A model generated the notes under the pieces. The model was given only the letters and a program-made list of their open reading frames with translations. It was not told the DNA's origin and ran no database searches. The position numbers were made by a program, and so were the translations under genes. From an uncultured virus (IMG/VR IMGVR_UViG_3300031951_021468) (Duplodnaviria > Heunggongvirae > Uroviricota > Caudoviricetes), in IMG/VR virus record IMGVR_UViG_3300031951_021468: DNA of 31,957 nt. One strand, 5' to 3'. How positions within the stretch are numbered: position 1 is the stretch's first letter; each line of letters starts with the position of its first letter. Shown here piece after piece: positions 531 to 30,874 of the stretch.

Positions 531-557
531 ATTCTTTTATAATTAAAAAGAATCTTT
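531..557 (-). promoter_or_regulatory. Variant of the AGG-N19-GAAT promoter motif (AAAG-N19-GAAT)
   Basis: Same 19-nt spacing as the other copies, one mismatch in the upstream box, about 20 nt before ATG 511. Confidence 0.4.
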
Positions 558-608
558 GACCGTTTTGAAAACATGCCCAAGATTCTTTTTTCGAGTTCAA
601 TTAATAAA

Positions 609-962
609 TTACCTAGTAATCGCTTTTCTTAATTTAGCCGTAGATGCTTTAAGCCTCGCGGTGGATGGAGTTTCAAAACTCACCTCATGCAAAAATACAG
701 TTCCACCATTTTTTATCATTGATTTTTTAATACTTATGTCTCTACCTTTAAAGCTCAAAATTTTCACTTCTCCGACATTCATGTTTTGCGATAAGTTCTG
801 TATTACAAAACCCTGGCTTTCAAGCTCCTTCGCAGGTTCATTCATGAGTCGAATATGATCATCCTCTACAATCCAAACTGGATGCCTGTAACTATCCAAC
901 ATAGCTTGCAAAATTTTCTGATAATTCTCAGATGATTTTGTTGTTTTAGCAGAGCCACTCAT
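609..962 (-). CDS. Stand-alone PAS-like domain protein
   Basis: ILQAMLDSYRHPVWIVEDDHIRLMNEPAKEL fits the PAS N-terminal pattern (ld...p.v.i.d....i...N.aa..l). SD-like AGAGGA upstream. Confidence 0.6.
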   Translation of the reverse strand: MSGSAKTTKSSENYQKILQAMLDSYRHPVWIVEDDHIRLMNEPAKELESQGFVIQNLSQNMNVGEVKILSFKGRDISIKKSMIKNGGTVFLHEVSFETPSTARLKASTAKLRKAITR

Positions 963-982
963 TGGTTTTCCTCTTTGTATTA

Positions 983-1846
983 TTAGAATATTCTATTAAA
1001 GTATTCCTGGAAAATATTAAAACTTTCTTCATCTTCCATAACAATATATACATGGGTGATTGATTTTGTTTCAACACTGTTTAAAAATGTATATATTGCA
1101 GATAGCTGCACTCTGGCCGTGTGAGCAATGTCATGAGTGCCACAATCACATGGAAGAATTACTACTTTATTTGCGCCTAATTCTTCGGCCATTAATAAAG
1201 ATTTTCTCATTGCTGTTTTTATGTCTTGCTCATTGACCAACCTGCTAAATCCAGCCACAACTGCATGAACGATAGCCTTGGGAACTACTAAGCTTTTTTC
1301 TCCACCATTGCTTGTTAGGTAAACGTGGCCCATCTTCACAGAATCTTCGGCAATTTTATCACATTCTTCTTGAATTAAGCCTTTTGAAAGGCGGTTTAAT
1401 TTATAGTCATCTATTGTTAAGCCAATGTTTGTAGGCAAAACCAAAATATCAGACTTCACAGCATAAGGATTATCAACCTGATGAATGCTAACTTGAACAA
1501 CTTCATGTTCATCTCCATCCTCGTAATCATCAGGCTCATCAGAATCGTCGTAATCTTCAGAATCTTCACTTTCTAGTTGATCTTCTTCTGTGATTTCTTC
1601 ATCATTGCTTTCGATATCTTCATCCATTTGCCAAATTATAGGCAAAACAGAACACTGGGAATATAAACCTTCGCAATCTTCCTTCCAGGTGTCTTCACTG
1701 AAATCTTCTGGCTCTAAAAAAGATTTTGAAAGTTTGTCTTGTGTTACAAAGAATTTAAAAACACACTTGTTATCACCAGATACATCCTGGAGGTAAAACG
1801 GGCACTCGCAAGCTTGGCCGACAGGTAATTTAACAAACTTTTTCAT
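983..1846 (-). CDS. Divergent macrodomain (Appr-1''-p/YmdB-like) protein with Cys-rich N-terminus and acidic linker
   Basis: The C-terminal ~170 aa follow the macro fold pattern: SDILVLPTN, LIQEEC, GHVYLTSNG, AIVHAV, MRKSLLMAEELGANKVVILPCDCG, SITHVYIV. Confidence 0.75.
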   Translation of the reverse strand: MKKFVKLPVGQACECPFYLQDVSGDNKCVFKFFVTQDKLSKSFLEPEDFSEDTWKEDCEGLYSQCSVLPIIWQMDEDIESNDEEITEEDQLESEDSEDYDDSDEPDDYEDGDEHEVVQVSIHQVDNPYAVKSDILVLPTNIGLTIDDYKLNRLSKGLIQEECDKIAEDSVKMGHVYLTSNGGEKSLVVPKAIVHAVVAGFSRLVNEQDIKTAMRKSLLMAEELGANKVVILPCDCGTHDIAHTARVQLSAIYTFLNSVETKSITHVYIVMEDEESFNIFQEYFNRIF

Positions 1847-1867
1847 TTAAGATTTTTATACAGCAAG

Positions 1868-2625: not shown

Positions 2626-3849
2626 TTAAATTGTTTTTGATATTAAATCAGTTTTGTCAGCAATTGTTCCCACATACTGATTTGCATGTTCTATTGCTTT
2701 CGTGGACTCTGGCCCACCATGTTGATTAATAATGCTAATGATATTTTGAACAAATTGATGAACATCAGGAATCGACGCAAGGTATTCTTTTGCCTCTTCT
2801 GGCGCTTCTTGAATCATAGATTGGGCCAGACTTATTCGTAAGTCATTTGTTGAATTTTCTCTAAACATAGAAGAATAATCAACAACTTTGTTTGTAAATG
2901 TATCATTGCCAAACATATCGGGAGCCGACTGAATACCTCCGAGTGAACCAAAATTGTTGCCGTTAGTCATGTGCGGGTGACCAGAACTTGAGCTATTTGT
3001 TTGCGTATTATTGGGCGAAACTGGAGCAGTGGGCGATGGATTGAGTGATTTTTGTATGTCCGTGGAACTTGGTGAACCCATGGTCGCTGCAGCAGCCGCA
3101 GGAATGGCAATACCAGCCGCAGCCTTTAAACCAATGACAGCAAGAATAGCTTTATAAGCCAGTCCCTTCATATAATTAAAAACTGCAACATCTTTGTATT
3201 GCTCAGCAAATTGAGTTGCTATTTTGTCTACTTCTTTATTTAGCTCGACCTGATCATAATCAACAGCATGGCCTTGTGAGTCAATTCTTTTCAGGTTTGC
3301 CGCTGATGGATTGGTGAGTAATTCCATCATCGTAACAGGTTTAGGGTTCATATTAAAGTTATCAACCCTGACGACAATTGATGGATCAAGTGGTTTTTCT
3401 AATGTTTGCTTTAGCCTGTTATCACCTATGATTTTCTGTATTAGATTGCCAATTTGGCCTCGTCCTTGGCCAAAATTAGCAGACTCAATCATTGCTCGCA
3501 AAGTGTCACTGTCATGAATTTTTGTTGGATTTTTCATGTCATCAGGCATAAAGTTTCCGACGCCAATATTTTGAACTCCTCTTTTTGTTGGAGACAAGGC
3601 CTCAAGTGTTTTTTCTTGAAGAACTCTGTTCAAAATTTCATTTTGGGCACTTGGAGTGTGCCCTTTAAACAACTCTTTGACTTCATCCGTATTTTTAAAC
3701 GGACTTCGCGTTCGTCTGAAAAAATTCCACAGACTTTTTAGCTCACCAGCCGCAACTACAACTCTTTCTGAGTCAGCGTTTATGGCCGCTTCGCGCATAT
3801 TATCCAACACGCGCTCAATTGGATTTGTCTTTGAAAATTTATTAGTCAT
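2626..3849 (-). CDS. Hypothetical protein with a hydrophobic Ala/Gly segment; putative virion/ejection protein
   Basis: 407 aa ORF containing AILAVIGLKAAAGIAIPAAAAA then an S/P/N-rich linker; preceded by the AGG-N19-GAAT motif. Confidence 0.5.
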   Translation of the reverse strand: MTNKFSKTNPIERVLDNMREAAINADSERVVVAAGELKSLWNFFRRTRSPFKNTDEVKELFKGHTPSAQNEILNRVLQEKTLEALSPTKRGVQNIGVGNFMPDDMKNPTKIHDSDTLRAMIESANFGQGRGQIGNLIQKIIGDNRLKQTLEKPLDPSIVVRVDNFNMNPKPVTMMELLTNPSAANLKRIDSQGHAVDYDQVELNKEVDKIATQFAEQYKDVAVFNYMKGLAYKAILAVIGLKAAAGIAIPAAAAATMGSPSSTDIQKSLNPSPTAPVSPNNTQTNSSSSGHPHMTNGNNFGSLGGIQSAPDMFGNDTFTNKVVDYSSMFRENSTNDLRISLAQSMIQEAPEEAKEYLASIPDVHQFVQNIISIINQHGGPESTKAIEHANQYVGTIADKTDLISKTI

Positions 3850-3877: not shown

Positions 3878-3904
3878 ATTCAATATTTTTTCTAAAAAAA
3901 CCTT
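3878..3904 (-). promoter_or_regulatory. Sigma-H-like promoter AAGG-N19-GAAT
   Basis: Exact motif on the minus strand about 30 nt upstream of ATG 3849. Confidence 0.65.
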
Positions 3905-3961: not shown

Positions 3962-4231
3962 ATGTTTTTAAATATCATTAATCTCGTGATTATGTCAGCG
4001 ATTGGCACGATCATTCTTTATGCCGCTCTGCCCAATTCTCGAAAGGAATGGAGCCTTTTACCTTTGCTTTTTATGGGTGTGTTGATCTATATTGCCGTAA
4101 CAGGAGGCATCGCCTTTGGCACATGGGTTATGATTTCGGCTTTTGTTGGATCAGGGGTCGGCCCTGCAATTATAATCGGATTAGTTTGGCTTCTTGCTGC
4201 ATTCTTTGTAGCTAAATCATGGCTTAATTAA
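3962..4231 (+). CDS. Small multi-pass membrane protein
   Basis: 89 aa, almost entirely hydrophobic (about 3 TM segments), with its own promoter and SD; converges with clpX with an 8-nt overlap. Confidence 0.75.
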   Translation: MFLNIINLVIMSAIGTIILYAALPNSRKEWSLLPLLFMGVLIYIAVTGGIAFGTWVMISAFVGSGVGPAIIIGLVWLLAAFFVAKSWLN

Positions 4232-5615
4232 TTGTAACATACGATTCTGGATTGGCAATGCACTCATTTGTTATAACAACATGTTTGATCTTTCTGGAAG
4301 GTTCTGAACCTAAAAGATCAAACGCGGCTTGGCTAACAGCTCTTTTAACAAGAGTATTTAAAGCACGAGTTCCTGTGTCTGATTTGGCAGTTGTTTCAAC
4401 AACTGCCTGAAGCATGCTTTCCTCAAACTCCAATTTTACTCCTGATTCCGCGAAAAGCATTTGCGATCTGGAAACTGGCGAGTTTGGCAAATCAATTAAG
4501 CACTTGTAAAGTTGCTCTTTAGTTAGTGGCGCAAGCGGAACAATAATTGGAATTCGACCAATAAACTCGGTGTTCATTCCAAAATCTATCAACGCTTTTA
4601 TGATCACATCGGTTGACGCTTCGGCAAGAATATTATACGAGCGTATCGAAGATTCTATACGATCTTCTTCATTTCTTTTGGATAAGGAAATGGTTCTTCC
4701 AGAGTATCCCATCAACTTGCCCACCTGCTCAGCAAGTCCGTTAAATGCCCCGCCGAACATAAAAAGCATCTTGGTTGTATCCACCATTGTCATTGTTCCA
4801 GGCGGGTGGCCCAAATTTTGCATTGGCACTTTTACTTTTTTGCCCTCAATAAGTTTAAGTAAAGAACTTTGTGTTGCGTAGTTTAAGCCCTCTGATTTTG
4901 TGCCTTGCATTGCATGTGTTGAAAGCTTGTCAATTTCGTCAATAAATGCAATGCCTTGTTCTGCGGCATGATGTACCCCGCTTGATTTGTACATCATTTC
5001 AAAAATAATGGTATCAACATCTGCGCCCTGAAACCCTGTGGGAGAATAACTTGTTGCATCGGCGGACACAAATGGAACGTCTAATATTTTCGCAATGGAA
5101 TTTGCAATTAATGTTTTTCCACTTCCAGAAGGCCCAAGCATAAGTATATTTTGTTTTTCTAATAGCGGGCTATCTGCGCGTCTTTGGGCGTTTTTATAAT
5201 GTTCGTAGACTGCTAAACTTATGCGTCTTTTTGCTTCTTCTTGGCCAATAACATTTTTGTCAAGATATTCATAAATTTCTCTAGGTGATTGCTCCTTATA
5301 TGTTCCTTTTATATGAGCTTGCAATTGCTTATCTTCAAGTTGCCGCCGTGCTGACGGAACCATTTCAAGTATGTGCTCTTTGATTTGTTGAGAATTTAAT
5401 GGATCGTCCATTTTTAAAATAAATTCCGCTAATGCAGAATTTAGCTCTAGCTGACCCATCACAGCACCAATATGAAAGGCCTCGGCATGCTTGCCGCACA
5501 AAAATATTTTACGATCATGAAACTGAATGTAACGCTGGTCAGTTGAGCCTTCTTCAGGTGGAGTACCGCAAACAACACAATTTGCATCTGAGATAATTTT
5601 ATTAGGATCAATCAT
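4224..5615 (-). CDS. clpX: ClpX-like AAA+ ATPase (divergent)
   Basis: SPREIYEYLDKNVIGQEEAKR, KQNILMLGPSGSGKT (Walker A), ADAT, FIDEIDK (Walker B), LLKLIEG, FGGAF, EFIGRIP; N-terminal CxxC...CxxH. Confidence 0.9.
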   Translation of the reverse strand: MIDPNKIISDANCVVCGTPPEEGSTDQRYIQFHDRKIFLCGKHAEAFHIGAVMGQLELNSALAEFILKMDDPLNSQQIKEHILEMVPSARRQLEDKQLQAHIKGTYKEQSPREIYEYLDKNVIGQEEAKRRISLAVYEHYKNAQRRADSPLLEKQNILMLGPSGSGKTLIANSIAKILDVPFVSADATSYSPTGFQGADVDTIIFEMMYKSSGVHHAAEQGIAFIDEIDKLSTHAMQGTKSEGLNYATQSSLLKLIEGKKVKVPMQNLGHPPGTMTMVDTTKMLFMFGGAFNGLAEQVGKLMGYSGRTISLSKRNEEDRIESSIRSYNILAEASTDVIIKALIDFGMNTEFIGRIPIIVPLAPLTKEQLYKCLIDLPNSPVSRSQMLFAESGVKLEFEESMLQAVVETTAKSDTGTRALNTLVKRAVSQAAFDLLGSEPSRKIKHVVITNECIANPESYVTIN

Positions 5616-6925: not shown

Positions 6926-7768
6926 CTATCTGGCTTTAAAGTAGTAATTTGGCTTGCGCTTTCCAGTTTCGGGATCGACTTCGCCTTTGTGACCGCGGAA
7001 TGTTAAAACACTTTCGGGCTTAATTTGACGGTGAGCCCAACCAATCTGCTTAGGAAGAGAGTATGGTTCACCCGTCTTGGGATCAACGCCTAAATAGCGC
7101 TCTCTTCCAGATTTTTCGTCTTCATCCAGTGACTCAAGATCAAATGTTGGATCAAAAAGTGCGCGAAGCTTTCTTTTGTCATAAAGACTAACATTGTTTT
7201 CGCTTGGTCTAAAATCGGGGTCAGAAGACATTAGACTATTTAATTCGGGATCAAAAATGTAAGACCGCTCATATCCAGGTTTGCTTGTAGAAGCATAATC
7301 TAAATCAAAAGTTGCACGACGAGATCGGTTGCGTGTGGCCTTATCGAGTCTGTCATAAAAAGCCTCTCTGTTGCGTTGAAGTTGATCTGGGCTCATAAAA
7401 AACTCTGGGAGTCTTTTTTCAAAATTGCTTTTAAATCCTGGGGGCAACATTACTGTCCGAGGTCCATACCGCATTGGCTCTTTCATTGGTATTCTGCGGC
7501 CAGGTGTATAATTTTCTATCGCATCGGCAAGTTCTGGATGTGCGCCGCGAATAATTTCTAGGTGTTCAGGGTCGCTTAAGTCTAAATTCTTAATTGTGTG
7601 ATACATCTGAGCATGATATGGGTCAATTTCCTCAACATCATTTTCGTCATCTGCCTCCCAAAGGGCATTAGCAGCATATTTGCGAAGCACGTCAGTTACA
7701 ACATCAGCTTCAGCAAAAAGCCCCTGCTGGTCAAGCCACATGGCAGTTTCGGCGAATTTTCTTAACAT
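6926..7768 (-). CDS. Hypothetical protein with N-terminal helical tag
   Basis: MLRKFAETAMWLDQQGLFAEADVVTDVLRKYAA; GAGGAG SD; AGG-N19-GAAT motif upstream. Confidence 0.6.
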   Translation of the reverse strand: MLRKFAETAMWLDQQGLFAEADVVTDVLRKYAANALWEADDENDVEEIDPYHAQMYHTIKNLDLSDPEHLEIIRGAHPELADAIENYTPGRRIPMKEPMRYGPRTVMLPPGFKSNFEKRLPEFFMSPDQLQRNREAFYDRLDKATRNRSRRATFDLDYASTSKPGYERSYIFDPELNSLMSSDPDFRPSENNVSLYDKRKLRALFDPTFDLESLDEDEKSGRERYLGVDPKTGEPYSLPKQIGWAHRQIKPESVLTFRGHKGEVDPETGKRKPNYYFKAR

Positions 7769-7831: not shown

Positions 7832-7858
7832 ATTCTCAACAAAAACCAAGCAGCCCTG
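7832..7858 (-). promoter_or_regulatory. Sigma-H-like promoter CAGG-N19-GAAT
   Basis: Exact spacing, upstream of ATG 7768; the upstream box lies inside the recD2 terminator stem. Confidence 0.6.
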
Positions 7859-7882
7859 CAAATGTTTTTCATTTGCAGGGCT
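7841..7882 (-). terminator. Intrinsic terminator after recD2
   Basis: 13-bp perfect stem AGCCCTGCAAATG (7852-7864) / CATTTGCAGGGCT (7870-7882), with an interrupted T tract on the minus strand. Confidence 0.7.
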
Positions 7883-7886
7883 TTTG

Positions 7887-10127
7887 CTATGATGCCCTAG
7901 AAGTATCGTCAACTAAATTTTTCAACAGATCAGATAAAGTTGTATTGCGAGATATTTCCCTGTCATTTGCCACTGCTATCTCTAGCGCTTTCTTAGTGCC
8001 CGCAATAATACAAAGCTTTTTGGCACGAGTCACTCCAGTGTAAATCAAGTTGCGTTGGAGCATATTATATTGGGAAGGATGTTGAACCAAAATTACGCAA
8101 GGATATTCTGCACCCTGAGACTTATGAACAGTGCACGCTAAACAATGCATAATTTCATCCCAGTCTTCGCGAGAATACTCAACTGGCGATTCCATATCGG
8201 GGTATTTAACCCAAATTGTCGTGCCATCTTTTTCGTCATTTATAATAGACGAAATATAACCTATGTCTCCGTTGAAAACCCCCGCATCGCCCTTTTTATA
8301 ATTATTCTTAATTTGCATAACGCGATCACCAACCCTAAAAATACGATTTCTATCCTGGATTTCTGGCTTTTTATCAGATGGCGGATTAAGTGCCGCTTGC
8401 AGAGGTGGATTTAAATCTTCAACCCCCAGTCCCCGACCACGCATGGGGGTTAGAATTTGAATGTCTTCATTTTTGAAACCTGCCTTTGGCAATGATTGAG
8501 TAACCAACTTAATGATCATATCGGTCAGTGTTGCCTGATCTTCAGAGACAACTAAAACGCAATTTCTTCCTTTAGATTCAATAGGTGTTGGCAAATCAGG
8601 CACTACGCCATGCAAAATGTCGTGTGCTACGGGAATAATAGTATTCCCCTTGCTTTGTCTGAATATTTGATCTAACTTAACACAAGGGACTTTGCCTGAT
8701 GAAATAAGGTCTCTTAATACATTTCCTGGTCCAACGGATGGTAATTGGTCTTTATCACCCACAATAATTAGTCTCATGTGTCTTTCCATTGCAAATAAAA
8801 TCGATCTAAACAATCTAATGTCCATCATTGACGATTCATCAATGACAACAACATCGGCCCAAAGTGGATTTCCCTGATGATAAGTAAACTTTTGGGAAGT
8901 TGAATCCCCTTTTAGCAATCGATGTATAGTTGAGGCCTCTGATCCTGTGGCCTCGGAAAGCCTTTTTGCAGCGCGGCCCGTAGGTGCGCAAAGCAAAAAA
9001 TCCATGTTGTGCCTTTCGAAAAGCGCACAAAGGGCTTTCGTGACCGTGGTTTTACCAACACCTGGGCCACCAGTTATAATCGCAACCCTTGAATTAAGGG
9101 CCGTGAACAAGGCTTCCTCTTGCTTTTCAGCAAGAACAATATCTTTTGTGACATCAATTTGTTTTAAATCCTTTCTAAGTGCTGCAAGGTCTTTGTATAT
9201 GGCATCACCCTTGTAGCACAACATATCTGTGATCATACTAGCAACATTTTTCTCAGCCTCGCGGATACCTGAAAGAAATATTTTGTGGTTTTCGTTCACA
9301 ATTTGAGATGACGAAGCCAACCTTCGGACAGACTCCATAACATGTGTTGCGTTCACGTTGCCTTTTAGAAGCCCCACTGATTGTTCAGAAACATCAGGAA
9401 GAGGCAAATAACAATGTCCACTGGACAACGCTTGATCGAGTACGTACAAAACAGCGGCGTCAACGCGCTGTGGACTATCTAATTTAACACCCGACTTAAG
9501 GGCAATTTCATCCGCTTTAAGAAATCCAATTCCCGAAACTTGTGTTAATGTGTAGATATTTTCTCGAATCATATCTAAAGCAGATTCGCCAAGCGATTTG
9601 TAGACTTTCTTGGCCATCATGGGAGTCATGCCATACTTAACTAATTCGGCTATAATTCTGTTAAATTCTCGATTTTCTGTCCAACATTGAATAATAGAGT
9701 CAACTTTTGAATCTGATAGGCCTGGGACATCATAGAGTCTTTCTGGATCATTGTCTAAAATATCGAATGTTTCCATCCCAAAAACTTGCACAATAGACCT
9801 GGCCGTGGAAACCCCTATTCCAGAAAATGTGTTGCTAGATAAATATTTAATGAGCGAATCTATATTAGCAAATCCATTTTCCTCAATATCCCGAACTTTA
9901 AACTGCTCTCCATATTTTTGGTGTACAGTTTTTTCAGCGAGGGCTTTGATTGTCATACCCTCGGAAATTCCTGGCATATCTCCCACTAATTTGACAGATG
10001 TATTACCTTTCTTAACGGTCACAATGGCGTATCCACTGTCAAAGCGATTAACTCGCGTTACTTCTCCGATGATTTCCACTAAATTGTCTTGATCTGCAGT
10101 CATTTTTAAACCCAAAATGTCTACCAT
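7887..10127 (-). CDS. recD2: RecD2 (SF1B) ATP-dependent DNA helicase
   Basis: N-terminal OB and HhH region (LTQVSGIGFLKADEIA), ITGGPGVGKTT, APTGRAAKRL, TIHRLL, IDESSM, VGDKDQLPSVGPG, FNGDIG, TVHKSQGAEY, YTGVTRAK. Confidence 0.95.
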   Translation of the reverse strand: MVDILGLKMTADQDNLVEIIGEVTRVNRFDSGYAIVTVKKGNTSVKLVGDMPGISEGMTIKALAEKTVHQKYGEQFKVRDIEENGFANIDSLIKYLSSNTFSGIGVSTARSIVQVFGMETFDILDNDPERLYDVPGLSDSKVDSIIQCWTENREFNRIIAELVKYGMTPMMAKKVYKSLGESALDMIRENIYTLTQVSGIGFLKADEIALKSGVKLDSPQRVDAAVLYVLDQALSSGHCYLPLPDVSEQSVGLLKGNVNATHVMESVRRLASSSQIVNENHKIFLSGIREAEKNVASMITDMLCYKGDAIYKDLAALRKDLKQIDVTKDIVLAEKQEEALFTALNSRVAIITGGPGVGKTTVTKALCALFERHNMDFLLCAPTGRAAKRLSEATGSEASTIHRLLKGDSTSQKFTYHQGNPLWADVVVIDESSMMDIRLFRSILFAMERHMRLIIVGDKDQLPSVGPGNVLRDLISSGKVPCVKLDQIFRQSKGNTIIPVAHDILHGVVPDLPTPIESKGRNCVLVVSEDQATLTDMIIKLVTQSLPKAGFKNEDIQILTPMRGRGLGVEDLNPPLQAALNPPSDKKPEIQDRNRIFRVGDRVMQIKNNYKKGDAGVFNGDIGYISSIINDEKDGTTIWVKYPDMESPVEYSREDWDEIMHCLACTVHKSQGAEYPCVILVQHPSQYNMLQRNLIYTGVTRAKKLCIIAGTKKALEIAVANDREISRNTTLSDLLKNLVDDTSRAS

Positions 10128-10256: not shown

Positions 10257-10481
10257 ATGGGAATAGGAGACAATGTGCTGAATAATCGTGGCGAAGGAGA
10301 ATGGGAAATAACAACTTACAATCCTGAAAAATCCATTGGGATTTTTAAGGGATGGCTTTTAGTTGGCAAAGATTTTCATGTGATCTTTGAAGATGAATCA
10401 CATACAATCTGTGTTATGAACGTGGCAAGTCAAAACGTGGCTTATGCCATTAATGTGGCAGCTCTTGAAAAGCAAAAATAA
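10257..10481 (+). CDS. Small hypothetical beta-rich protein
   Basis: 74 aa ORF with AGGAG SD; alternative GTG start at 10275 also has an AGGAG. Confidence 0.65.
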   Translation: MGIGDNVLNNRGEGEWEITTYNPEKSIGIFKGWLLVGKDFHVIFEDESHTICVMNVASQNVAYAINVAALEKQK

Positions 10482-10485: not shown

Positions 10486-10764
10486 ATGTGGTATCGCACG
10501 CAATTTGCATCTGAAAAAAGTCAAGCCTCGGATCACGGATACGAGGCTAAAATTGCGTATTCGGTCACCGAAAATGTTGTGAGAAAATTTTTCAGAACAA
10601 AAGGGCATTACAACCCCAGTATTCACGAAGTTAATCAAAAAGTGAACTTGATTATACGTAAAATCAAAGAAAAATATCGTAACATTAACAACATGAGACT
10701 TCACTCAAAAGATGGAAGAATAACTTCTGTTATTGAAGATATTGCAAGTGACATCCTAAAATAA
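10486..10764 (+). CDS. Hypothetical protein with MWYR leader
   Basis: Likely start ATG 10486 just after the previous stop, giving MWYRTQFAS...; same leader as 11993-12313. Confidence 0.6.
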   Translation: MWYRTQFASEKSQASDHGYEAKIAYSVTENVVRKFFRTKGHYNPSIHEVNQKVNLIIRKIKEKYRNINNMRLHSKDGRITSVIEDIASDILK

Positions 10765-19664: not shown

Positions 19665-19698
19665 AAAAGCCAGCAATTTTAAAATTGCTGGCTTTTTT
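19665..19698. terminator. Bidirectional intrinsic terminator
   Basis: Perfect 32-bp palindrome AAAAGCCAGCAATTTT|AAAATTGCTGGCTTTT with T tracts on both strands. Confidence 0.85.
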
Positions 19699-19708
19699 GT
19701 GCCAAAAA

Positions 19709-19821: not shown

Positions 19822-19853
19822 CACACATTTAAAGACAAACACTTAGGTGAGCA

Positions 19854-22025: not shown

Positions 22026-22043
22026 AACAAAAAGAGAAAAACA

Positions 22044-24584
22044 ATGAGAAAGTCAAAGTCAAAGAACGAAGACGTAAATATTAAATCAATCATCGAGCAT
22101 ATTTCTGATGAAGAAATTACACATTTGCTTAATGAAAATTACATGCGCTATACCTTTTCGGTTATGGAAGATCGAGCGTTACCTGACGCAAGAGATGGTC
22201 TTAAGCCATCGCAAAGACGTATTTTACTGGCCATGAATGATCTTCACTTAAGCCCTAATAGCGCTTTTGAAAAGGTAAGTAAAATTTCTGGGCAAACAAT
22301 GGGGGATTATCACCCTCATGGCGACGTCGTTATCACTCCCACGCTTGTAAGAATGGGTCAAGATTGGATCATGAGATACCCACTCGTTGCCAAGCAAGGG
22401 AACTATGGGAATATTGACGGTGACCCGCCTGCAGCTGCTCGATATATTGAAGGAAAACTAACAAAAGCTGGGGCGGCGATTTTAGCCGATCTTTCACCAG
22501 ATGTCGTTAAATACATCCCGAACTATAATGATAAACTCAAGGAACCCACGGTACTTCCGTCTCTGTTGCCCAACCTTCTTGTTAATGGTGGAGCAGGCAT
22601 TGCCGTGGGCGTCGCCACAAGATTAGCACCCCATAATTTAAGAGAAGTCGTTCAACTCATTAAGGCATACATTGAAAATCCAAACATGACTGTTGATGAC
22701 GCGATGAAGATCATGCCTGGCCCTGATTTTCCCACAGGTGGTGTAATTAGGGGTAATTCTGGTATTAGAAATTACTACGAAACTGGTCGTGGCTCAGTTC
22801 AAATTGAAGGCGTTTATGAAATCATAGATGAAGGCAAGGGCGGACAATACATCAAGATCACTGGCGTTCCTTATGGGGTGTCCCCAGAAAGATTGGCTGA
22901 ACAAATTGCCAATCTGGTGAAAGAAAAGAAAATTGAAGGGATTTCAGACTTGAAAGACTTGGGATATCTGAATCGCCAGACAAAGGAAAGAGTAATTGAT
23001 GTTAGAGTTTGGATTCAGAGAGGCGGCAATGCTCAGTTGATTTTGAACCAACTTTTAAAGTCAACAAATCTTCGGACTTCTTATGATGTTAATCAAACTG
23101 TTCTGATCGGCGGAGAAGTAAAGGAAAATGTTCCAATCCTAGAACTCGTAAGAGTGTTTGTCGAACACAGAAGAGAGGTTCTTTTTAACAAATTTACTGC
23201 CGAAAAATCAAGCAATGAAGCCAGAGTCCATATTCTGGATGGTCTCTTAAAAGTCGCCATGGACATCGATAAGGCCATAGCACTTATCAGAGGTTCCAAT
23301 GATGCTGAGGAGGCCATTAATGCGTTGATTACAAACAATTTGGTAGACACTCAAATTCAAGCAGAAGCCGTGCTTAAAATTACGCTTCGCCAATTAACCA
23401 AACTTGAGTCTTCGGCATTGGAAACGGAAAGACAAAAGCTTTCTGAAAGAAATGAATGGCTAACTAAGGTTCTCGGAAGTAACAAGAAACTTCTTGAACT
23501 TGTTTCCAAAGAACAAGACGAACTCGCAAAGCAAATTGGCGATGATCGCAGAACCGAAATTGGGCATGACTCTGACGACATCACTGCAGAAGACCTTATC
23601 CCCGAAGAACAAATTGTAGTTACACTTACAAAAGATGGCTACATCAAGCGTGTTCCAATGAATACCTTTAGAGTTCAAAACAAGGGGGGCAAAGGAGTTG
23701 TTGGTGTTAAAGGTCGGTCAGAAGACGAGGCATCTGACCTTTTTGTAGGCTCTACTCATGATCTATTCCTGTTTTTCACAAACAAGGGTCTTATGTACAA
23801 AAAGAAGGGCTACCAAATCCCCGCCGCCGCAAGAACTGGCAAGGGAACTCACCTAGCAAATCTGCTGGCTCTCTCTGCTGATGAACGAGTTACGAGCACA
23901 ATATCACTCAAGACCCTCGACACGGATGGATTTTTCTTGATGGCTACCAAAAATGGCCTTATTAAGAGAACCGAAATTCGAGATTATAATTCAAGTCTTA
24001 AACAAAGAGGACTACAAGCTATGAAATTGAATGAAGGAGATGAAGTGGCATTCGTGCAAGTTTCTGACGGATCAAGAGACATCTGCATCATTACTGCGAA
24101 TGGCATGGCCGTGAGATATCCAGAGTCGAACGTCCGAGTGGTAAGTCGAGTTTCACTTGGGGTTAAGGCTATGAACATCGCCGATAATGATGTCATCGTT
24201 TCTATGATTACGCTTGATAAGACGGAAAATCCTGATATTCTTGTGATCACCGAAAATGGATATGGAAAGCGAAGCCCAGCGTCGAAATACCGATGTCTTC
24301 AGGGCAGATATGCCAAGGGTGCGAGAACAATTGATCAAGTGAAGCGCGACCGAAATGGATTGATTGTTGCAGCGCTTGTTGTGAACGAAGAGGATCGTAT
24401 TCTGATTCTAACAACGAAGGGCAAAATGATTCAAATCGCCGTCGAAGACATCACGTCTAAGGGAAGAGTCACAATGGGGAACATCATCGTGAAGCTTGAC
24501 GCAGGAGACATGGTTCAGACTGTGGTCAAGGTAGATGCGGATGACATCGAAGAAGATGAAAATTACGACGAAACATCTGAATAA
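22044..24584 (+). CDS. gyrA: DNA gyrase subunit A
   Basis: [26 protein letters not shown] (catalytic Tyr), GPDFPTGG, GyrA-box QNKGGKG, beta-pinwheel repeats, acidic tail. Confidence 0.96.
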
Positions 24585-24585
24585 T

Positions 24586-24635
24586 TAGAACAAAACACAA
24601 AACACAAAATTTTATTGATTTTGTGTTTTGTTCTA
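24586..24635 (+). terminator. Long A/C-rich hairpin after gyrA
   Basis: 17-bp inverted repeat TAGAACAAAACACAAAA (24586-24602) / TTTTGTGTTTTGTTCTA (24619-24635). Confidence 0.6.
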
Positions 24636-24660
24636 GGTCTAGTTTTAGTGTTTATAGAAT
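24634..24660 (+). promoter_or_regulatory. Sigma-H-like promoter TAGG-N19-GAAT
   Basis: Exact motif heading the tail-gene run. Confidence 0.65.
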
Positions 24661-24697
24661 ACATCTTTAACGTCCCTCTCAGGGGATGGGAGTTCTG

Positions 24698-25102
24698 ATG
24701 GCAAATCTTATATATGATTCTGGTCGAGAAGCTTTCTTAAATGGTGATATAGACTTTACAAACGATGATATTCGAGTCATACTTCTTTCAAGCGGATACA
24801 CATTTAGCTCAGCGCACGATTTTCTTAATGACGTTGCTGGCGGCGGGGTCCGAGTTGCTACATCATCTGCGCTGACTGGCAAAAGCTCAACCGCTGGCGT
24901 GGCCGACGCCGCCGACGTCACTTTTACAGCAGTGTCTGGGTCTCAAGTTACTCAGTTTATTATTTATCAACACACTGGGACAGAAAGCACAAGTAGGCTT
25001 ATAGCATACTTTGATACTGCAACAAACCTGCCAATTACTCCAAACGGAGGAGACATCACTATACAGTGGGACAATGGCGCAAATAAGATATTTAAACTTT
25101 AA
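24698..25102 (+). CDS. Phage structural (minor tail/fibre-associated) protein
   Basis: MANLIYDSGREAFLNGDIDF...DAADVTF...LIAYFD...PNGGDITIQWD...IFKL resembles a common small phage structural family. Start ATG 24698 after GGGAG. Confidence 0.7.
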   Translation: MANLIYDSGREAFLNGDIDFTNDDIRVILLSSGYTFSSAHDFLNDVAGGGVRVATSSALTGKSSTAGVADAADVTFTAVSGSQVTQFIIYQHTGTESTSRLIAYFDTATNLPITPNGGDITIQWDNGANKIFKL

Positions 25103-25124
25103 GACACTAAAAGAGGGAATATAA

Positions 25125-25367
25125 ATGAATAAATACGAAGAAATGAGCCTTGAAGAACTTGAGACTTTGCGATTGGAAAAAATGGAATCAGTCAGGATCG
25201 CTAAAGACGACCTTGCGGAAGTTAGTTCTGTTTATGATCGCAAAGCCCGTGCCGCTGAACTTGCCAGAAAATTAGGGGGATTGTCTCCTGAAGACTTGGC
25301 ATTATTGCAAGAAATGATGCCAGATGGAGTGCCAACCGAAGAAAACGTCGGAGTACCAGGTCAATAA
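25125..25367 (+). CDS. Small coiled-coil protein in the tail module
   Basis: 80 aa, helical and acidic; AGAGGG SD. Confidence 0.65.
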   Translation: MNKYEEMSLEELETLRLEKMESVRIAKDDLAEVSSVYDRKARAAELARKLGGLSPEDLALLQEMMPDGVPTEENVGVPGQ

Positions 25368-25376
25368 AAACAATCC

Positions 25377-27512
25377 ATGCCTAAAGTTGCCGTTGAACAC
25401 CTGTTTACAGGAGATACCGTTGAATACACAAGTTATGACTCAACAAGAACCATGTTGGGGAAGCACATCGTCCAGCAAACTGGCCCTTCGGCTGAAGATA
25501 AGTTTGCAGGACCGATGCCCATTTTACTTGGCAGGCCAATGGAGCAACAAGTCGCAACAGCTCAGGCGGTGGGGTTCCCACATGTAATTGATATTGGGGG
25601 AGGTAAACAATTGTGCTTTTTAATTGGCACAGGCGCAACTAACCCTTTGCGTGTCGTTATGTATGAGTTCGACAAGCAAGCCAATACATTTACTTATATT
25701 GGCTTTGTAACAGTAGCGTTTGCAGCAGGAAACGCTACTGCAAGAGGTTTTCGAGCTCAAAGGTATCTTCATACAACGGGTACGGTTGCTGTAAGCGGGA
25801 CTGGTGTTACTGGAACTGGAACCCAATTCCAATCAGAACGAATTGGCGCGGGGGCAAGAATAGGATTTGGGAGCACAAACCCCAATAACATAACAACTTG
25901 GTACACGATAGCGCCCGCTTCGGCCATTGCAAGCAATACTGCTTTGACATTGGTTGAAAACGCAGGTACAATATCTGCGGGAACACCTTATGTAATTGAG
26001 GAGCTGCGTATTGTGGTTTCAATTACAAACGCAACGGCAACAAACGGCGGGCTATATCTTGCAAAAGGACTTCACGCTGGTTTGTTTACTTCCGCTGGAA
26101 CAACAATCAGCTTGGCCACTACCGTGGACAATATCAGAGCGGTTTACTGGCTGAAAGACGCCGCAACTGTTACTAATACAGTTGCGGCTGGGTGCGCAAT
26201 TGAGTCTCCCGTAAGCAACACAGAACAATATGTTTATGTGCTAAACGGTGCCACAACAGCAAGTGTTTGTTATAAATATAACATAAGAGCCTCTTTGGCA
26301 TCATTGACAGCTGGCGCTTCACAATCAGCGATAACGCTCATCTCAGGTACCGCAACCCTGGTAGGAAACCAGTCTCAGTTAAACAATGGGCGAGTAGCCA
26401 CCACATCGCATGGACCTGGATCGGGATCAGCATGTTTGTATTGGGTCACAGCTACACGTATATATAGGGCGTTGCTTTCGGGGATAACTGCGGGGTCAAC
26501 AACATGGGCTAATGATGCAGCTGTTGAAAATCCACCTGGAGGCTCGGCTACTTTTGCTCTTGGAAGCGCATTCACATCGGTAGAATATGCAGGCAATATA
26601 GACCGATTTATCGTGGCTACAAGCGGCGCGGCGGGCATAAGGTCATATGTTACTCGGTATATTACTGATGGTTCTCAATTTGATCATATTTTTCTAGTAG
26701 ACACAAAACAGTTAGATCAATCTACCGCTGATGCTGGAGGGGTTATTCATCCAGCAGTTAATGCATCGACTATGAGCGTCTGGTCTGAAGATGGCTATTG
26801 TTATCTGTGTCGAAACGGGGCGACGGCAGCTCTTAATCAAATTTACATCGTTCCGCTATCAGCCCATTGGTTTTACGCCACTGGATTTTCGGACAACAAT
26901 AGATTAATTACCCCTGCTATTTCAACCCCAGGAGCAACAAAATTTTACAGATTGTATGTCAACAATATTGAACACTTAGGCACGGGCACATTGGGCATGC
27001 CGCCTGAACCATATAGGGTTTACTACAGAACAAGTGGTATAACAGACGACTCTGGCAGCTGGACCCTTCTTGGAGAGGGCCGCGATTTATCTGGTGTTTC
27101 CCCTGCAGCATCTATACAATTTGCTTTTGAGTTTAAAATAATTGGACTAACCTGTATTCCAGGGAGAATATTAGGCTTAACAGTTCTGTACGAACAAGGG
27201 GATGAAATCCCATCACATCTGGAATGGAATTACACTGATTCTAGTTTAAGTGATGGTACGCTTGGATTTAAGCAAGTGTCGTCTTATGGCAGCGTACCCC
27301 ATTTAACTATCAGTTATTATCGAAGTGACAATAATAATCTTTTATTAACTCAGGCTAGCACGGGAACAACAAATGGCGTGTTTGAATACTGGAGTGGCTC
27401 GGCATGGGTGGCTGGAAATGGCACCGACACAGTAGGGCTCAGAAGAAGATTTAGACCCACGGCGGGGCTGCCAACTAATGTTGACGTATATGCAAAACTG
27501 CAACTTGTTTAA
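25377..27512 (+). CDS. Tail fibre / receptor-binding-like protein
   Basis: 711 aa, T/G/A-rich and beta-rich; TGTVAVSGTGVTGTGTQF is a typical fibre motif. Confidence 0.7.
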   Translation: MPKVAVEHLFTGDTVEYTSYDSTRTMLGKHIVQQTGPSAEDKFAGPMPILLGRPMEQQVATAQAVGFPHVIDIGGGKQLCFLIGTGATNPLRVVMYEFDKQANTFTYIGFVTVAFAAGNATARGFRAQRYLHTTGTVAVSGTGVTGTGTQFQSERIGAGARIGFGSTNPNNITTWYTIAPASAIASNTALTLVENAGTISAGTPYVIEELRIVVSITNATATNGGLYLAKGLHAGLFTSAGTTISLATTVDNIRAVYWLKDAATVTNTVAAGCAIESPVSNTEQYVYVLNGATTASVCYKYNIRASLASLTAGASQSAITLISGTATLVGNQSQLNNGRVATTSHGPGSGSACLYWVTATRIYRALLSGITAGSTTWANDAAVENPPGGSATFALGSAFTSVEYAGNIDRFIVATSGAAGIRSYVTRYITDGSQFDHIFLVDTKQLDQSTADAGGVIHPAVNASTMSVWSEDGYCYLCRNGATAALNQIYIVPLSAHWFYATGFSDNNRLITPAISTPGATKFYRLYVNNIEHLGTGTLGMPPEPYRVYYRTSGITDDSGSWTLLGEGRDLSGVSPAASIQFAFEFKIIGLTCIPGRILGLTVLYEQGDEIPSHLEWNYTDSSLSDGTLGFKQVSSYGSVPHLTISYYRSDNNNLLLTQASTGTTNGVFEYWSGSAWVAGNGTDTVGLRRRFRPTAGLPTNVDVYAKLQLV

Positions 27513-27529
27513 AGTGGTGGTGATGATGC

Positions 27530-29578
27530 ATGTCACTTCAAAGCTTAAGCGTAAGAAAAAGTAGCCTGGGGCTGAAACTAAACAATTTACCAGTTGAGCC
27601 AATTCAGTATCTTGCTACAAAAGGTAAACAAGGTGTTTATGTAAGTGACGGGAGTGATAATTCAAGATATCTCCTCACATCACGAAACACATCTCTTGGC
27701 ACAGTAAGAAGCCTGCAGTTGTTATCTCCTGGGTCAATAAACTCTTTGGAGTCTTTTGGCACGGCAACGTTAAATCTTGGGGCGGCAGTTCTTACAATTT
27801 TGCCAGAAAGTATTTTAAGTGCGGAAAATTTTGGCAGCCCAACTGTGCGATCTAGCATTTCAATCATATTAAATTCTATTAATTCGTTAGAAGCCTTCGG
27901 CTCATCTACCATTAGATCGTCTATTAGGTTGTTTCCTGGTAGTATTTCAAGCGGTGAAGTTTTTGGCCTTCCTGAAATTAGCTTAGGGCTAGCAAGCATT
28001 GTTCCAAATGGCATTAATAGCGCTGAAGCATTTGGTTCTGTTATTATTTATGCTGGCGAAGTTGCGTTAAATCCCACAGGAATTAATTCTAGTCAGGTGT
28101 TCGGATCACCCGTAGTCAGGCCAGGAACAATAACAATCAGCACGTCAGGTGTTGCAAGCCAGGAAACACTCGGATTACAAACATTTATAGCGGGCGGCAT
28201 TACAATAACACACGGCGGATTAGCCAGTGGTGAAATGTTTGGCATACCTGTTGTCAATGCTGGAGTAGTGCTCATTAATAGCGGATCAATTTCTTCTCTT
28301 GAGTCTTTTGGCTCTTCAATTTTAAGAGATGGGACAACAACAATTCAGCCAAACAGCATCAACAGTGCTGAAAATTTTGGTCTAGCCGCCTTAAGAGCTG
28401 GAGCTATATCAATTTTACACAGCGCTATTAGCTCACAAGAGATATTTGGCAGCGCTGTAATTAGACCTGGTACTGTCACAATATTACATGCAGGCATAGC
28501 AAGTTCTTTTGAAACTGGTACAGCAAGCTTTATTACTTCTCGATTTATTGCACCCAGCGGAATAATTTCTACGGAAGCCTTTGGCGCACCTAATTTGATA
28601 GCAGGAGGCATTCTAATAGGACACACAGGCGTGCCTTCAAGCATAGCCTTAGGCAACCAATCGATCATTCCTGGTGTCTCGAATATAAATGCGACGTCAG
28701 CAGCGTATGAATCTGCTATGGGCAATGTAATTTTAAGACCAGGCATTGTTTCAATAGGACACTTAAGCATAGGGTCATCATCTTCTTTTGGCAATGCATC
28801 AGTAGCGCCAGGCAACACAAATTTAAACACTAACGCCATCGAAAGCCAAGAAATTTTTGGCTCGGGGCAAATACTTGCAGGCAATGTTAACATTAATGCC
28901 ATTGGAATAGCAACGGGAGAATCATATGGTTCGTCAACAATAAGACCTGGAAATGTATCTTTACAACCAGTTGGGATATCAAGTATTGGTGAATTTGGTG
29001 TAAACATATTGATCCCTGGGGTGTCATATGTAATCTCATTTGGAATAGAAAGCCAAGAATCATTTGGAACTGTCTCGTTGGAAACATTATCACAAATAAG
29101 CGCCGAAAGTATTGCCAGCTTATCAGGTGTAGGATTACATGATATTTACTCATTAAATATGATGATGCCAAGCGGCATCATCAGTCAAGAAATTTTTGGT
29201 GATATTAATTTTTATTCCATTGCCAAACTTGTTGCAACAAGCATCAGTAGTTCAGAGCTTTTTGGAAATCATATCGTTGCACCTGGCGGCGAAGTATTTA
29301 TTTCACACCAGTCAATTTCATCATTGAGCGCATTGGGATCACATCTTTTAATCCCTGGGGAAGTAACCATATTTACTCCATCGATTGAATATCTTTCTCA
29401 GATGGGAATCTGGAATTTTATATTTAATCCTCTTAATGGAACGCTGTCGGTGTCAGTCCATGGAACAGTTAATATTGAAACTAAAATTAAATCCAAGATA
29501 AATATCGATCCTTCAAGCAGCCTAGATGTCACTATAACAACTCGTGTGTTTAACCGAGGTCAGAGAAGCCTTTCTTAA
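27530..29578 (+). CDS. Fibrous repeat protein (about 25 repeats of 22-25 aa)
   Basis: Tandem PxxIxSxExFGxxxxxxGxxxIx units through nearly the whole 682 aa. Confidence 0.75.
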   Translation: MSLQSLSVRKSSLGLKLNNLPVEPIQYLATKGKQGVYVSDGSDNSRYLLTSRNTSLGTVRSLQLLSPGSINSLESFGTATLNLGAAVLTILPESILSAENFGSPTVRSSISIILNSINSLEAFGSSTIRSSIRLFPGSISSGEVFGLPEISLGLASIVPNGINSAEAFGSVIIYAGEVALNPTGINSSQVFGSPVVRPGTITISTSGVASQETLGLQTFIAGGITITHGGLASGEMFGIPVVNAGVVLINSGSISSLESFGSSILRDGTTTIQPNSINSAENFGLAALRAGAISILHSAISSQEIFGSAVIRPGTVTILHAGIASSFETGTASFITSRFIAPSGIISTEAFGAPNLIAGGILIGHTGVPSSIALGNQSIIPGVSNINATSAAYESAMGNVILRPGIVSIGHLSIGSSSSFGNASVAPGNTNLNTNAIESQEIFGSGQILAGNVNINAIGIATGESYGSSTIRPGNVSLQPVGISSIGEFGVNILIPGVSYVISFGIESQESFGTVSLETLSQISAESIASLSGVGLHDIYSLNMMMPSGIISQEIFGDINFYSIAKLVATSISSSELFGNHIVAPGGEVFISHQSISSLSALGSHLLIPGEVTIFTPSIEYLSQMGIWNFIFNPLNGTLSVSVHGTVNIETKIKSKINIDPSSSLDVTITTRVFNRGQRSLS

Positions 29579-29604
29579 AGGAAGTAGTGTTTTTAAGAAA
29601 GAAA
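29578..29604 (+). promoter_or_regulatory. Sigma-H-like promoter AAGGA-N18-GAAA
   Basis: Exact spacing, just upstream of AAGGAG SD and ATG 29627. Confidence 0.6.
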
Positions 29605-29626
29605 AATAAAAAAGGAGATTGTTTTA

Positions 29627-29926
29627 ATGTTTTATGTCAATAGCACTTTAGAAATTGAGGGAAAAGTACGAAAAAGAGACGGAACATTATTTAATCCATC
29701 GGGCATTAGAGTGTTTGTTACCAACCCTTCAGGTGTCACAACTACATATATTTGGGGAACAGACGCAGCGCTTCAACAAGCTGAAGATACGTCTGGGGAC
29801 CCTATTGTTGGGGTTTTTGTATTGACTTATACCCCAACTCAGCCAGGAACTTATTCATACGTTTTTGAGTCATACGGTGATTTTACCTCAAAAACAAAAA
29901 ACATATTTCACGTGGAGAAAACTTAA
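29627..29926 (+). CDS. Small Ig-like/BppU-N-like structural protein
   Basis: 99 aa all-beta pattern with VTNPSG...GVFVLTYTPTQPGTYSYVF. Confidence 0.6.
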   Translation: MFYVNSTLEIEGKVRKRDGTLFNPSGIRVFVTNPSGVTTTYIWGTDAALQQAEDTSGDPIVGVFVLTYTPTQPGTYSYVFESYGDFTSKTKNIFHVEKT

Positions 29927-29929
29927 AAC

Positions 29930-30874
29930 ATGTCCTTCCCTGGCAATCTTTCAAGATTTGAGCCAGCTTCAGGCCTTTTGGTTCGATCTATAAAAATCAA
30001 TGGGCATTATTTGTTTGTTGATAGCTGCGAAATAAATCCCGAGCAAGAAATTGATCTAGAGTTTCTAATTCAGGGAGGCCCAGGGGCTGCCATTGCTAAT
30101 ATAGGTGTGAAAAAAATCAGTGGCAGAATTACTTGCCCTATAAGAGTAAACAGAAGTGGTGTTGTCAATAACGCTGTGAAAGCGCTTTTGCAACATGCAG
30201 AAAGCCCAATGAGTGCCATTAGAATTGACACAAATCATGTTTTGTCGCAAGTCGGGCTAACCGCAGATAATGGCGGAACTGATAACAACCAATTATTGTC
30301 TCTTGACACCGTGGTTGTTAGTGACTTAACAATTACAGCAACTCCCGATGGCGGCGTTCAGCTAACAGCCCAAATTTTAGGCATGGTTGATGCTCGCGAT
30401 CCCTCTGATTATGTCGCTCCATCACCAGGTCAGCTTCTTGGCAGAGAGTTAAGTTGGGGTGATTGTAATGTAAAAAGACTTGAATCACAAATGAGATCAG
30501 CGACGTCTCTTGAAATTAATATCAAAAACGAACTAAAGCCATTAAATTTTATTCCCCCTATCACCACAGAAATTAACGACCTTTCTGATCAAATTGATAT
30601 GATCGGGATTCAATCGTGTAAGTGGGGAGGAAAATTTGAAGAAATACTTAGGCTTGGAGTAGATATGGAAAGCCACATACATGGCGGATGGATGCAAAAC
30701 GAAAACTTAAATATAGATTTTGGCCCTATATCTGCAACATTATCATGCCCTTTGTTTAAAATAGCTGAGGTTCCTTTGTCAAGCAAGCAGATCAGAAGAA
30801 CAACTTCGTTCTTTGGTCAAATTCAACCGACATTGCCTTTGGCAACAGGTGGGCTATTTACATTTTCAGAATAG
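29930..30874 (+). CDS. Putative tail-tube-like structural protein (paralog 1)
   Basis: Beta-rich; N-terminal half aligns by eye with the next ORF (IKINGHYLF...FLIQGGP...IGVKKISGRITCPIRV). Confidence 0.5.
   Translation: MSFPGNLSRFEPASGLLVRSIKINGHYLFVDSCEINPEQEIDLEFLIQGGPGAAIANIGVKKISGRITCPIRVNRSGVVNNAVKALLQHAESPMSAIRIDTNHVLSQVGLTADNGGTDNNQLLSLDTVVVSDLTITATPDGGVQLTAQILGMVDARDPSDYVAPSPGQLLGRELSWGDCNVKRLESQMRSATSLEINIKNELKPLNFIPPITTEINDLSDQIDMIGIQSCKWGGKFEEILRLGVDMESHIHGGWMQNENLNIDFGPISATLSCPLFKIAEVPLSSKQIRRTTSFFGQIQPTLPLATGGLFTFSE
30846..30872 (+). promoter_or_regulatory. Sigma-H-like promoter CAGG-N19-GAAT
   Basis: Exact motif at the 3' end of paralog 1, upstream of paralog 2. Confidence 0.55.

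Follow-up and report, generated by a model that had tools for sequence, protein, structure and literature searches.

A Predicted AGG-N19-GAA(A/T/G) Promoter Class in an Uncultured Phage of the Caudoviricetes and Its Relatives, with a SigH-Like Phage Sigma Factor as Its Probable Reader

The genome of an uncultured freshwater jumbo phage of the Caudoviricetes (IMG/VR record IMGVR_UViG_3300031951_021468) carries, on the coding strand and shortly upstream of a number of its genes, the two-part motif AGG-N19-GAA(A/T/G), which would be a true class of promoters in this phage and its clade and would probably be read by a SigH-like sigma factor of the phage itself. The motif had been noticed, as AGG-N19-GAAW (W being A or T), in a stretch of 31,957 nucleotides, referred to here as the window, and had been likened in the original prediction to the promoters of Bacillus subtilis SigH. 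The window corresponds to G000:C1:226899-258855 read on the minus strand, G000 being the 378,848-bp IMG/VR record of the phage genome that contains it (40.6% GC; CheckV completeness 100%). The interpretation as a promoter is based on the specificity of the motif for one spacing and one strand, its position upstream of genes, its conservation in relatives and at orthologous genes, and the fixed short distance at which it precedes ATG codons that lack a Shine-Dalgarno (SD) sequence.

Genes were called with a scorer of codon usage and SD sequences made for the analysis, which gave 420 genes in G000 (88.6% coding), 30 of them in the window; the upstream stretches analyzed include ends of neighboring genes. 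Within 120 nt upstream of the 30 window genes, eight matches to AGG-N19-GAAW are found, compared to 0.78±0.86 in 2000 dinucleotide shuffles (largest value 4). Genome-wide, the 120 nt upstream of the 420 genes contain 35 matches, while 200 dinucleotide shuffles give 10.25±3.36 (largest value 25); a shuffle without a valid path after 200 tries was kept unshuffled, by which the shuffle counts can only be raised. The density of matches is 0.70 per kb upstream of genes and 0.155 per kb in coding sequence read in the sense direction, and the upstream bias that the original prediction had proposed thus holds for the whole genome. The signal is also bound to one spacing and one strand. In the 120 nt upstream of genes, the 35 GAAW matches at spacing 19 face a mean of 6.1 and a maximum of 13 at the other spacings from 12 to 26, and with GAA alone the 48 matches at spacing 19 face a mean of 10.5 and a maximum of 17. 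In the 100 nt upstream on the coding strand, 30 matches occur at a spacing of 19 and 0 to 14 at all others from 10 to 30, the immediate neighbors AGG-N18 and AGG-N20 giving 5 and 8, respectively; the antisense strand at spacing 19 gives 8.

Both boxes are narrowly defined. Single-base changes in AGG or GAA abolish the enrichment at spacing 19, with AGA being marginal (25 matches versus 15.4, largest value 23), and neither AAG (17 versus 19.6) nor GTAW (4 versus 2.6) is enriched. The base following GAA in the 48 sites is A in 19, T in 16, G in 11, and C in 2; the GAAG class is enriched (11 versus 2.6), as opposed to the class with C, and the second box is therefore written GAAD (D being A, T, or G). 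G is rare as the base before AGG. Further conserved positions were not found at these sites, and about six to seven bases are conserved in all. In an unbiased scan of trinucleotide pairs at spacings from 8 to 30 (94,208 tests), AGG/GAA at 19 ranks 15th in G000 with P ~1e-16, the pairs ranked above it belonging to one far stronger promoter-like class or being A/T-rich. An explanation of AGG as an SD sequence and of GAA as an early codon was rejected on account of the peak being only one spacing wide and of in-frame stops between AGG and ATG at the short-distance sites.

The same layout recurs in two relatives with the same sigma gene, G001 (46 kb, 54.6% GC, 39 genes) and G002 (340,000 of 358,269 bases, 33.8% GC, 380 genes). 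At spacing 19, G001 has 9 matches, with 0-4 at other spacings, and G002 has 30, with 4-14 at other spacings; in both genomes, AGG/GAA at 19 is the top pair of the unbiased scan (9 versus 1.9 in G001, 30 versus 9.3 in G002). Among the 35 reciprocal-best ortholog pairs with G001, the motif precedes seven genes in G000 and six in G001, and six pairs have it in both, where 1.2 would be expected (P=4e-6). For the 143 pairs with G002, the corresponding numbers are 26, 16, and 10, with 2.9 expected (P=3e-5). Where orthologous sites were compared directly, the boxes are kept and the spacer sequence is different. Whole-record counts of the pattern in five relatives are not distinguishable from those of a reversed-pattern control, which is ascribed to dilution of the signal in the absence of gene context, and the 3-kb flanks of the sigma gene in 51 relatives give no clear peak at spacing 19 (8 matches, compared to 0-10 at other spacings).

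A separate observation concerns several near-identical palindromes of G002 that also match the pattern, for example at 154263-154288, 155580-155605, 163833-163858, 171730-171755, and 172236-172261. Each consists of AGG, a 9-10-bp stem, a loop, the stem complement ending in CCT, and GAAA. They are a repeated hairpin element and not members of the promoter class.

A pattern picked post hoc from a degenerate seven-base word could in principle be a product of chance. The word is indeed short, and its count over both strands of the whole window does not reach significance (15 matches versus 10.53±3.13, a value reached by 13 of 100 shuffles), six of the 15 matches, at 238, 840, 4418, 9499, 20991, and 28566, lying within genes. 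Against this stand the specificity for spacing, strand, and position, the top rank of the pair in two other genomes, and the conservation at orthologs, by which the chance explanation becomes practically negligible.

The geometry of the motif matches that of promoters of the sigma-70 family, in that a free spacer separates the two boxes, whose centers are about 22 bp apart. The distance from the motif to the start codon ranges from 8 to 120 nt. Two of the sites in the window are directly preceded by strong hairpins that end the upstream genes (Table 1). In nine genes of G000 and four of G002, the motif is followed at 8-12 nt by an ATG without an SD sequence, an in-frame stop lies a few codons before that ATG, and none of these thirteen candidates has another possible start nearby; in the distance bins from 5 to 14 nt, there are nine cases at spacing 19 and one each at the control spacings 16 and 22. 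This arrangement implies leaderless mRNAs. Concerning the start of transcription, the 6-9 nt after GAAW expected in the original prediction are slightly too few, the distance from the W of that box to the leaderless ATGs being 9-13 nt.

A conserved signal of another kind, either the two-part site of a phage repressor or activator or an RNA element in 5' leaders, would also be compatible with so small a number of conserved bases. Against it speak the box distance and the free spacer, which are like those of sigma promoters, and the position of two sites directly after terminator-like hairpins; for an RNA element, moreover, the SD-less ATGs 8-12 nt after the motif leave no transcript to hold it. 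An explanation along these lines is considered highly improbable.

In the window itself, all eight exact AGG-N19-GAAW sites named in the original prediction are present, although the ranges of 27 nt assigned to them exceed the 26-nt motif by one base at one end. Another exact site, at 589-614(-), had been overlooked; it precedes an open reading frame (ORF), 2-580, that runs off the start of the window. Directly upstream of phoH, the original prediction had not found the motif; a GAAG variant does precede this gene. The two one-mismatch sites of the original prediction exist, at 531-556(-) with AAG and GAAT and at 19710-19735(+) with AGG and GTAT, but they belong to classes without enrichment and are probably chance occurrences. 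Three of the window sites are conserved in G002: the site of phoH, whose ortholog (70% identity) has the motif 47 nt before its start; the 30847 site, which lies at the same distance of 62 nt from the start of the ortholog; and the 12323 site, whose G002 homolog at 289367-289849(-) has AGG-N19-GAAT 8 nt before the ATG. Of other window genes, five have motif-free orthologs in G002, among them the genes downstream of the 10192 and 18333 sites, and two are without an ortholog; one gene for which no G002 ortholog was found is 2626-3849(-), coding for a 407-amino acid protein that likewise has no family match.

The local context differs from site to site. The hairpin following the recD-like gene overlaps the 7832 site such that AGG lies within the 3' arm of the hairpin. 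The 24635 site heads the same-strand gene run 24698-29578, which includes the protein with minor-tail PHROG matches. The 12323 site is overlapped on the opposite strand by TGTATAAT. The 29579 site appears to be the weakest of the eight, since its -10 box lies in an A-rich run with recurring GAAA and a start 9-13 nt further on would hit the SD sequence.

Table 1: Motif sites, hairpins, TGTATAA words, and selected genes. Positions are those of the window unless prefixed with G000:C1.
Feature	Position	Strand	Remarks
AGG-N19-GAAA	589-614	-	In-frame ATG 15 nt after motif
AGG-N19-GAAT	3878-3903	-	28 nt before ATG of 2626-3849(-)
AGG-N19-GAAT	7832-7857	-	63 nt before ATG of 6926-7768(-), which has a GAGGAG SD
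AGG-N19-GAAA	10192-10217	+	Divergent gap between recD-like gene and 10257-10481(+); 39 nt before ATG with AGGAGA SD
AGG-N19-GAAT	12323-12348	-	9 nt before GTG of ORF 11993-12313(-); leaderless candidate
AGG-N19-GAAG (variant)	13417-13442	+	62 nt before phoH TTG start at 13505 (AAGGAG SD)
AGG-N19-GAAA	18333-18358	+	Straddles stop of 17909-18349; 86 nt before ATG of 18445-18939
AGG-N19-GAAT	24635-24660	+	37 nt before ATG at 24698
AGG-N19-GAAA	29579-29604	+	Directly after stop of 27530-29578; 22 nt before ATG at 29627
AGG-N19-GAAT	30847-30872	+	Overlaps last codon and stop of 29930-30874; 62 nt before ATG at 30935
Terminator-like hairpin	7837-7880	-	Perfect 11-bp arms 7870-7880 and 7854-7864; T-rich run 7837-7847
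Hairpin	24589-24632	+	14-nt arms; after topoisomerase II genes, directly before 24635 site
TGTATAA	14879-14885	+	49 nt before 14934 Ig-repeat gene
TGTATAA	1856-1862	-	
TGTATAA	5672-5678	-	
TGTATAA	12336-12342	+	
AAA ATPase	4224-5615	-	
recD-like helicase	7887-10127	-	
phoH	13505-14875	+	
Ig-repeat protein ("fibre" gene)	14934-17909	+	
Topoisomerase II	19854-24584	+	Two subunits
Protein with minor-tail PHROG matches	27530-29578	+	
Sigma s1	G000:C1:302787-303413		Sigma-70 family
Sigma s2	G000:C1:109410-110102		SigH-like, 230 amino acids; outside window
Sigma s3	G000:C1:112530-113120		ECF-like

The product of ORF 11993-12313(-) starts with (M)WYR, and such starts form a group of their own. Twelve ORFs of G000, coding for 81 to 722 amino acids, begin with M-W-Y-(R/K), often followed by x-A-Q; two lie in the window, 10486-10764(+) and 11993-12313(-), and ten elsewhere in the genome. 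Among the 420 called genes, nine such starts are seen, where 0.03 would be expected from composition. In four of the twelve ORFs, AGG-N19-GAA is found 8-10 nt before the start codon, and a G002 homolog has the same start. MWY(R/K) looks like a shared N-terminal tag.

As to the enzyme that would read the motif, a phage-encoded SigH-like or ECF-like sigma factor had been among the possibilities originally raised, and G000 does contain three ORFs of the sigma-70 family, designated s1, s2, and s3, including one of either type. The best five NCBIfam matches of s2 are all models of the SigH group (PRK08295/TIGR02859); TIGR02859 matches with E=2.7e-30 and in full length (positions 8-195 of 198). The best match in the PDB is 3mzy, annotated "RNA polymerase sigma-H factor" (E=6.9e-12), and s2 shares 32% identity (E=1e-31) with a Listeria protein scoring above the SigH cut-offs. 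The phage protein and the Listeria SigH share the LNNxVSLDxP stretch after region 2 and the region-4 helix K-x-[VI]-D-N-A-L-x-R-[IV]-[KR]-K-K, which reads KCVDNALMRIRKK in s2, KAIDNALQRVKKK in Listeria SigH, and KSIDNTIQRIRKK in 3mzy. All 17 aligned members of the s2 family are identical in this helix and in the DNA-reading regions. The family comprises 231 homologs, the 120 listed being at least 54% identical, and is found at 51 IMG/VR loci on contigs of up to 358 kb. Among 185,579 species genomes, it was met with on one 6,960-bp contig of a Bacteroidetes metagenome-assembled genome when an alignment served as query, and not at all with a single protein as query. Judged by these sequence data, s2 is a member of a phage family. 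Given the resemblance of the motif to SigH promoters, s2 is probably the reader of AGG-N19-GAAD.

Several points weigh against this assignment, or against the promoter class in its details. The scores of s2 stay far below the curated SigH cut-offs (105.3 versus 294.8, 111.6 versus 212, and 103.7 versus 208 bits), and s2 is by its sequence SigH-like and not an equivalog. The fourth base of the -35 box has no bias for A (10 A, 5 C, 4 G, and 12 T at 31 sites), and the last base of the -10 box may be A, T, or G, as against the T of SigH. Approximately 10 of the 48 matches in the genome would be expected by chance, and single sites such as that at 29579 may therefore be false. The gene calls are imperfect, with at least two ORFs missed in the window, including 11993-12313(-). 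Finally, s3 was found in all relatives tested, in G001 and G002 by means of local tblastn and in four of four records searched, and the motif lies upstream of the s3 gene itself, as AGG-N19-GAAT in G000 and as AGG-N19-GAAG in G001.

The last point raises the possibility that the ECF-like s3 reads the same promoter class and thereby drives its own gene, as ECF sigma factors commonly do. All 16 IMG/VR loci of s3 come from the same clade as s2, and presence or absence cannot separate the two proteins. Their likeness to SigH, however, differs. A comparison of s3 with bona fide SigH is not significant (E=0.25), and its region-4 helix, TQASFCKRLQRGL, is unlike that of SigH, whereas both boxes of the motif and their spacing resemble those of SigH promoters. 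Promoters of ECF sigma factors usually have AAC in the -35 and CGT in the -10 box, both of which are absent from AGG and GAAD. In G002, moreover, the motif is missing before the s3 gene, which lies behind the s2 gene in one same-strand run. All in all, s3 is a possible but not a likely reader. For the remaining protein, s1, neither G001 nor the analyzed 340 kb of G002 contains a homolog.

A sigma factor of the host, be it SigH or another alternative sigma factor, could also recognize the motif, the phage then borrowing a regulon signal of its host, and the motif does match a bacterial promoter type. The same rigid layout is, however, found in phages with 34%, 41%, and 55% GC, each with the conserved phage sigma factor; at such different GC contents the hosts should differ, which makes this explanation weak. 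Should the hosts belong to the Bacteroidota, SigH would not be expected in them. There are weak hints at such hosts from the one binned contig and from host predictions for a possibly related lineage, as given in the available part of its description (PMC12619734). The host stationary-phase sigma factor named as an alternative in the original prediction is thus very unlikely, given that motif and phage sigma factor are kept together across the three GC contents and that the s2 family appears on a single short contig among the species genomes.

Returning to s2 as the reader, the following scenario appears most likely. The -35 element would be AGG and the -10 element GAAD, with an invariable distance between them, and the phage SigH-like sigma factor would direct the core RNA polymerase of the host to these promoters; the core enzyme of the host would be needed because a Pfam search of G000 yielded neither a beta nor a beta' domain of RNA polymerase. 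The first transcribed base would lie approximately 9-13 nt downstream of the end of GAAD; in about one case out of five it would coincide with the A of the ATG, resulting in a leaderless mRNA. Genome-wide, about 35-40 transcription units would be served in this way, about 9-10 of them in the window.

The genes behind the motif are diverse. A regular expression finds it within 150 nt of 49 of the 420 genes, with roughly 10-13 expected by chance. Pfam assigns a family to 10 of 47 motif-bearing genes, namely, to phoH, an S8 subtilase, a polyA-polymerase/HD protein of the CCA type, a T4-type RNA ligase, a pyruvyl transferase, proteins with an ART-PolyVal domain, an InPase domain, or DUF1257, and s3. 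The PHROG scan covered the first 130 of 403 genes and chosen subsets and named few functions, so that the make-up of the regulon is sampled only. The sites shared with G001 are located among the head and packaging genes, adjoining the genes for the portal protein and the large terminase, and precede a 1425-amino acid protein with a match to a head-maturation-protease PHROG as well as its neighbors. With head-module genes among the targets, firing would be non-early. The original designation as the phage late promoter is borne out in part, with conserved sites located in the head module and other sites preceding phoH, the RNA ligase, the CCA/polyA-polymerase-like protein, and a sigma gene; "non-early, including head genes" is a reasonable description, and "the late promoter" appears too strong.

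Other upstream signals occur in the same genome. TGTATAA(A/T) is present 57 times, 26 of these occurrences being in the 120-nt upstream stretches, where 3.4 would be expected. It precedes the genes for the portal protein, 2889- and 1654-amino acid adhesin-like proteins, the Ig-repeat protein, Hsp70, GroEL, a DnaJ-like protein, and an AAA ATPase, and among the 7-mers upstream of G002 genes the related GTATAAT ranks first. TGTATAA(A/T) may be a promoter class that consists of a -10 box only. Between the TGTATAA word and the ATG at 14934, a perfect 11-bp hairpin is found at 14889-14917(+) (arms 14889-14899 and 14907-14917; no T-run after it), which, due to this location, would lie inside the 5' leader. 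The topoisomerase gene is preceded by TGATATAAT at 19809-19817.

The stronger promoter-like class of the G000 scan consists of AAAAATCCCC, about 17 free bases, and (A/G)ATCGGATATATAA, and is found at approximately 1.9-59.5 kb of G000:C1. Of 88 TCC-N20-CGG matches, 35 were assigned to it by eye, all of them before small genes in one genome end of about 58 kb. An ATG often follows 3 nt after the second box, which suggests leaderless mRNAs in this class, too. Neither this class nor s1 occurs in the 340 kb of G002.

Regarding the source of the DNA, no near match to the window was obtained among 50,697 phage records (megablast with window positions 14000-22000). Metagenome runs of 13 studies contain window positions 22000-31957; most have freshwater labels, and five rows are labeled as fungus metagenome. 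Apart from the genes listed in Table 1, most window genes are without a family match. G000 also encodes Hsp70, GroEL, a DnaJ-like protein, NAD synthetase, PRPP synthetase, RtcB, two RNA ligases, and two transposase-like proteins.

Taken together, these observations allow a wider picture to be drawn, albeit a speculative one that we hold to be doubtful. A clade of freshwater jumbo phages would use a SigH-derived sigma factor on a foreign core polymerase, in hosts that are maybe not Bacillota, and would run a self-contained AGG-N19-GAA program, often fused to the start codon so that no SD sequence is needed, and often placed before MWY(R/K)-tagged proteins. If true, this would amount to a portable module of transcription, translation, and targeting that is independent of the promoter and ribosome-binding rules of the host. 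Irrespective of this wider picture, with s2 as the probable reader, a specificity of the Bacillota SigH type would be in use by widespread lake phages. For an uncultivated phage clade, the motif would provide a testable map of transcription units, and an orphan phage sigma family would become linked to a concrete DNA target. The leaderless subset would offer clean promoter-ATG fusions for heterologous tests.

Summarizing, a phage sigma factor re-aiming the polymerase of its host is of a known kind. Classic examples are gp28 and gp33/34 of SPO1 and gp55 of T4. As in these phages, a sigma factor of the phage would re-aim the host core polymerase to promoters deviating from the host consensus, and several promoter classes would exist side by side. 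The -10 boxes of SPO1 and T4 are T-rich or TATAAATA, while the present phage has GAAD, and among the 14 phage records matching s2 at E<=1e-3 there is none of SPO1 or T4. According to the available part of a preprint, gp28 of SPO1 falls into a mixed cluster that also contains sigD, sigH, and sigI (10.1101/2021.11.12.468384). By gene content alone, with Hsp70, a DnaJ-like protein, GroEL, and sigma genes, G000 resembles the "moraphages," which are described in the accessible text as freshwater jumbo phages without RNA polymerase genes and with DnaK/DnaJ chaperones and a core sigma factor; their genomes measure 200-307 kb, compared to 379 kb for G000, and that text does not describe phage promoters for them (PMC12619734).

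The closest counterpart of the motif is the SigH promoter of Bacillota. A study of transcription start sites in Sporomusa, as far as its available part goes, gives AGGA as the -35 and GAAT as the -10 box with a spacer of 17-18 nt, resembling the SigH promoters of B. subtilis and C. difficile (PMC12456013). Since AGGA-N18-GAAT has the same layout as AGG-N19-GAAT, the phage motif agrees with this published spacer, in keeping with the SigH likeness that had been proposed at the outset. Common to both systems are the AGG(A) and GAA(T) boxes, the 18-nt spacer counted from AGGA, and, in s2, the region-4 helix and the LNNxVSLDxP stretch. The phage motif differs in its free fourth -35 base, its single spacer length, and its many leaderless targets, and s2 differs in being phage-encoded, about 32% identical, and not linked to stationary phase or sporulation. 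AGG-N19-GAA phage promoters were not found described in a literature search. The new points are the SigH-type specificity, the rigid single spacing, the leaderless subset, and the phage clade in which they occur.

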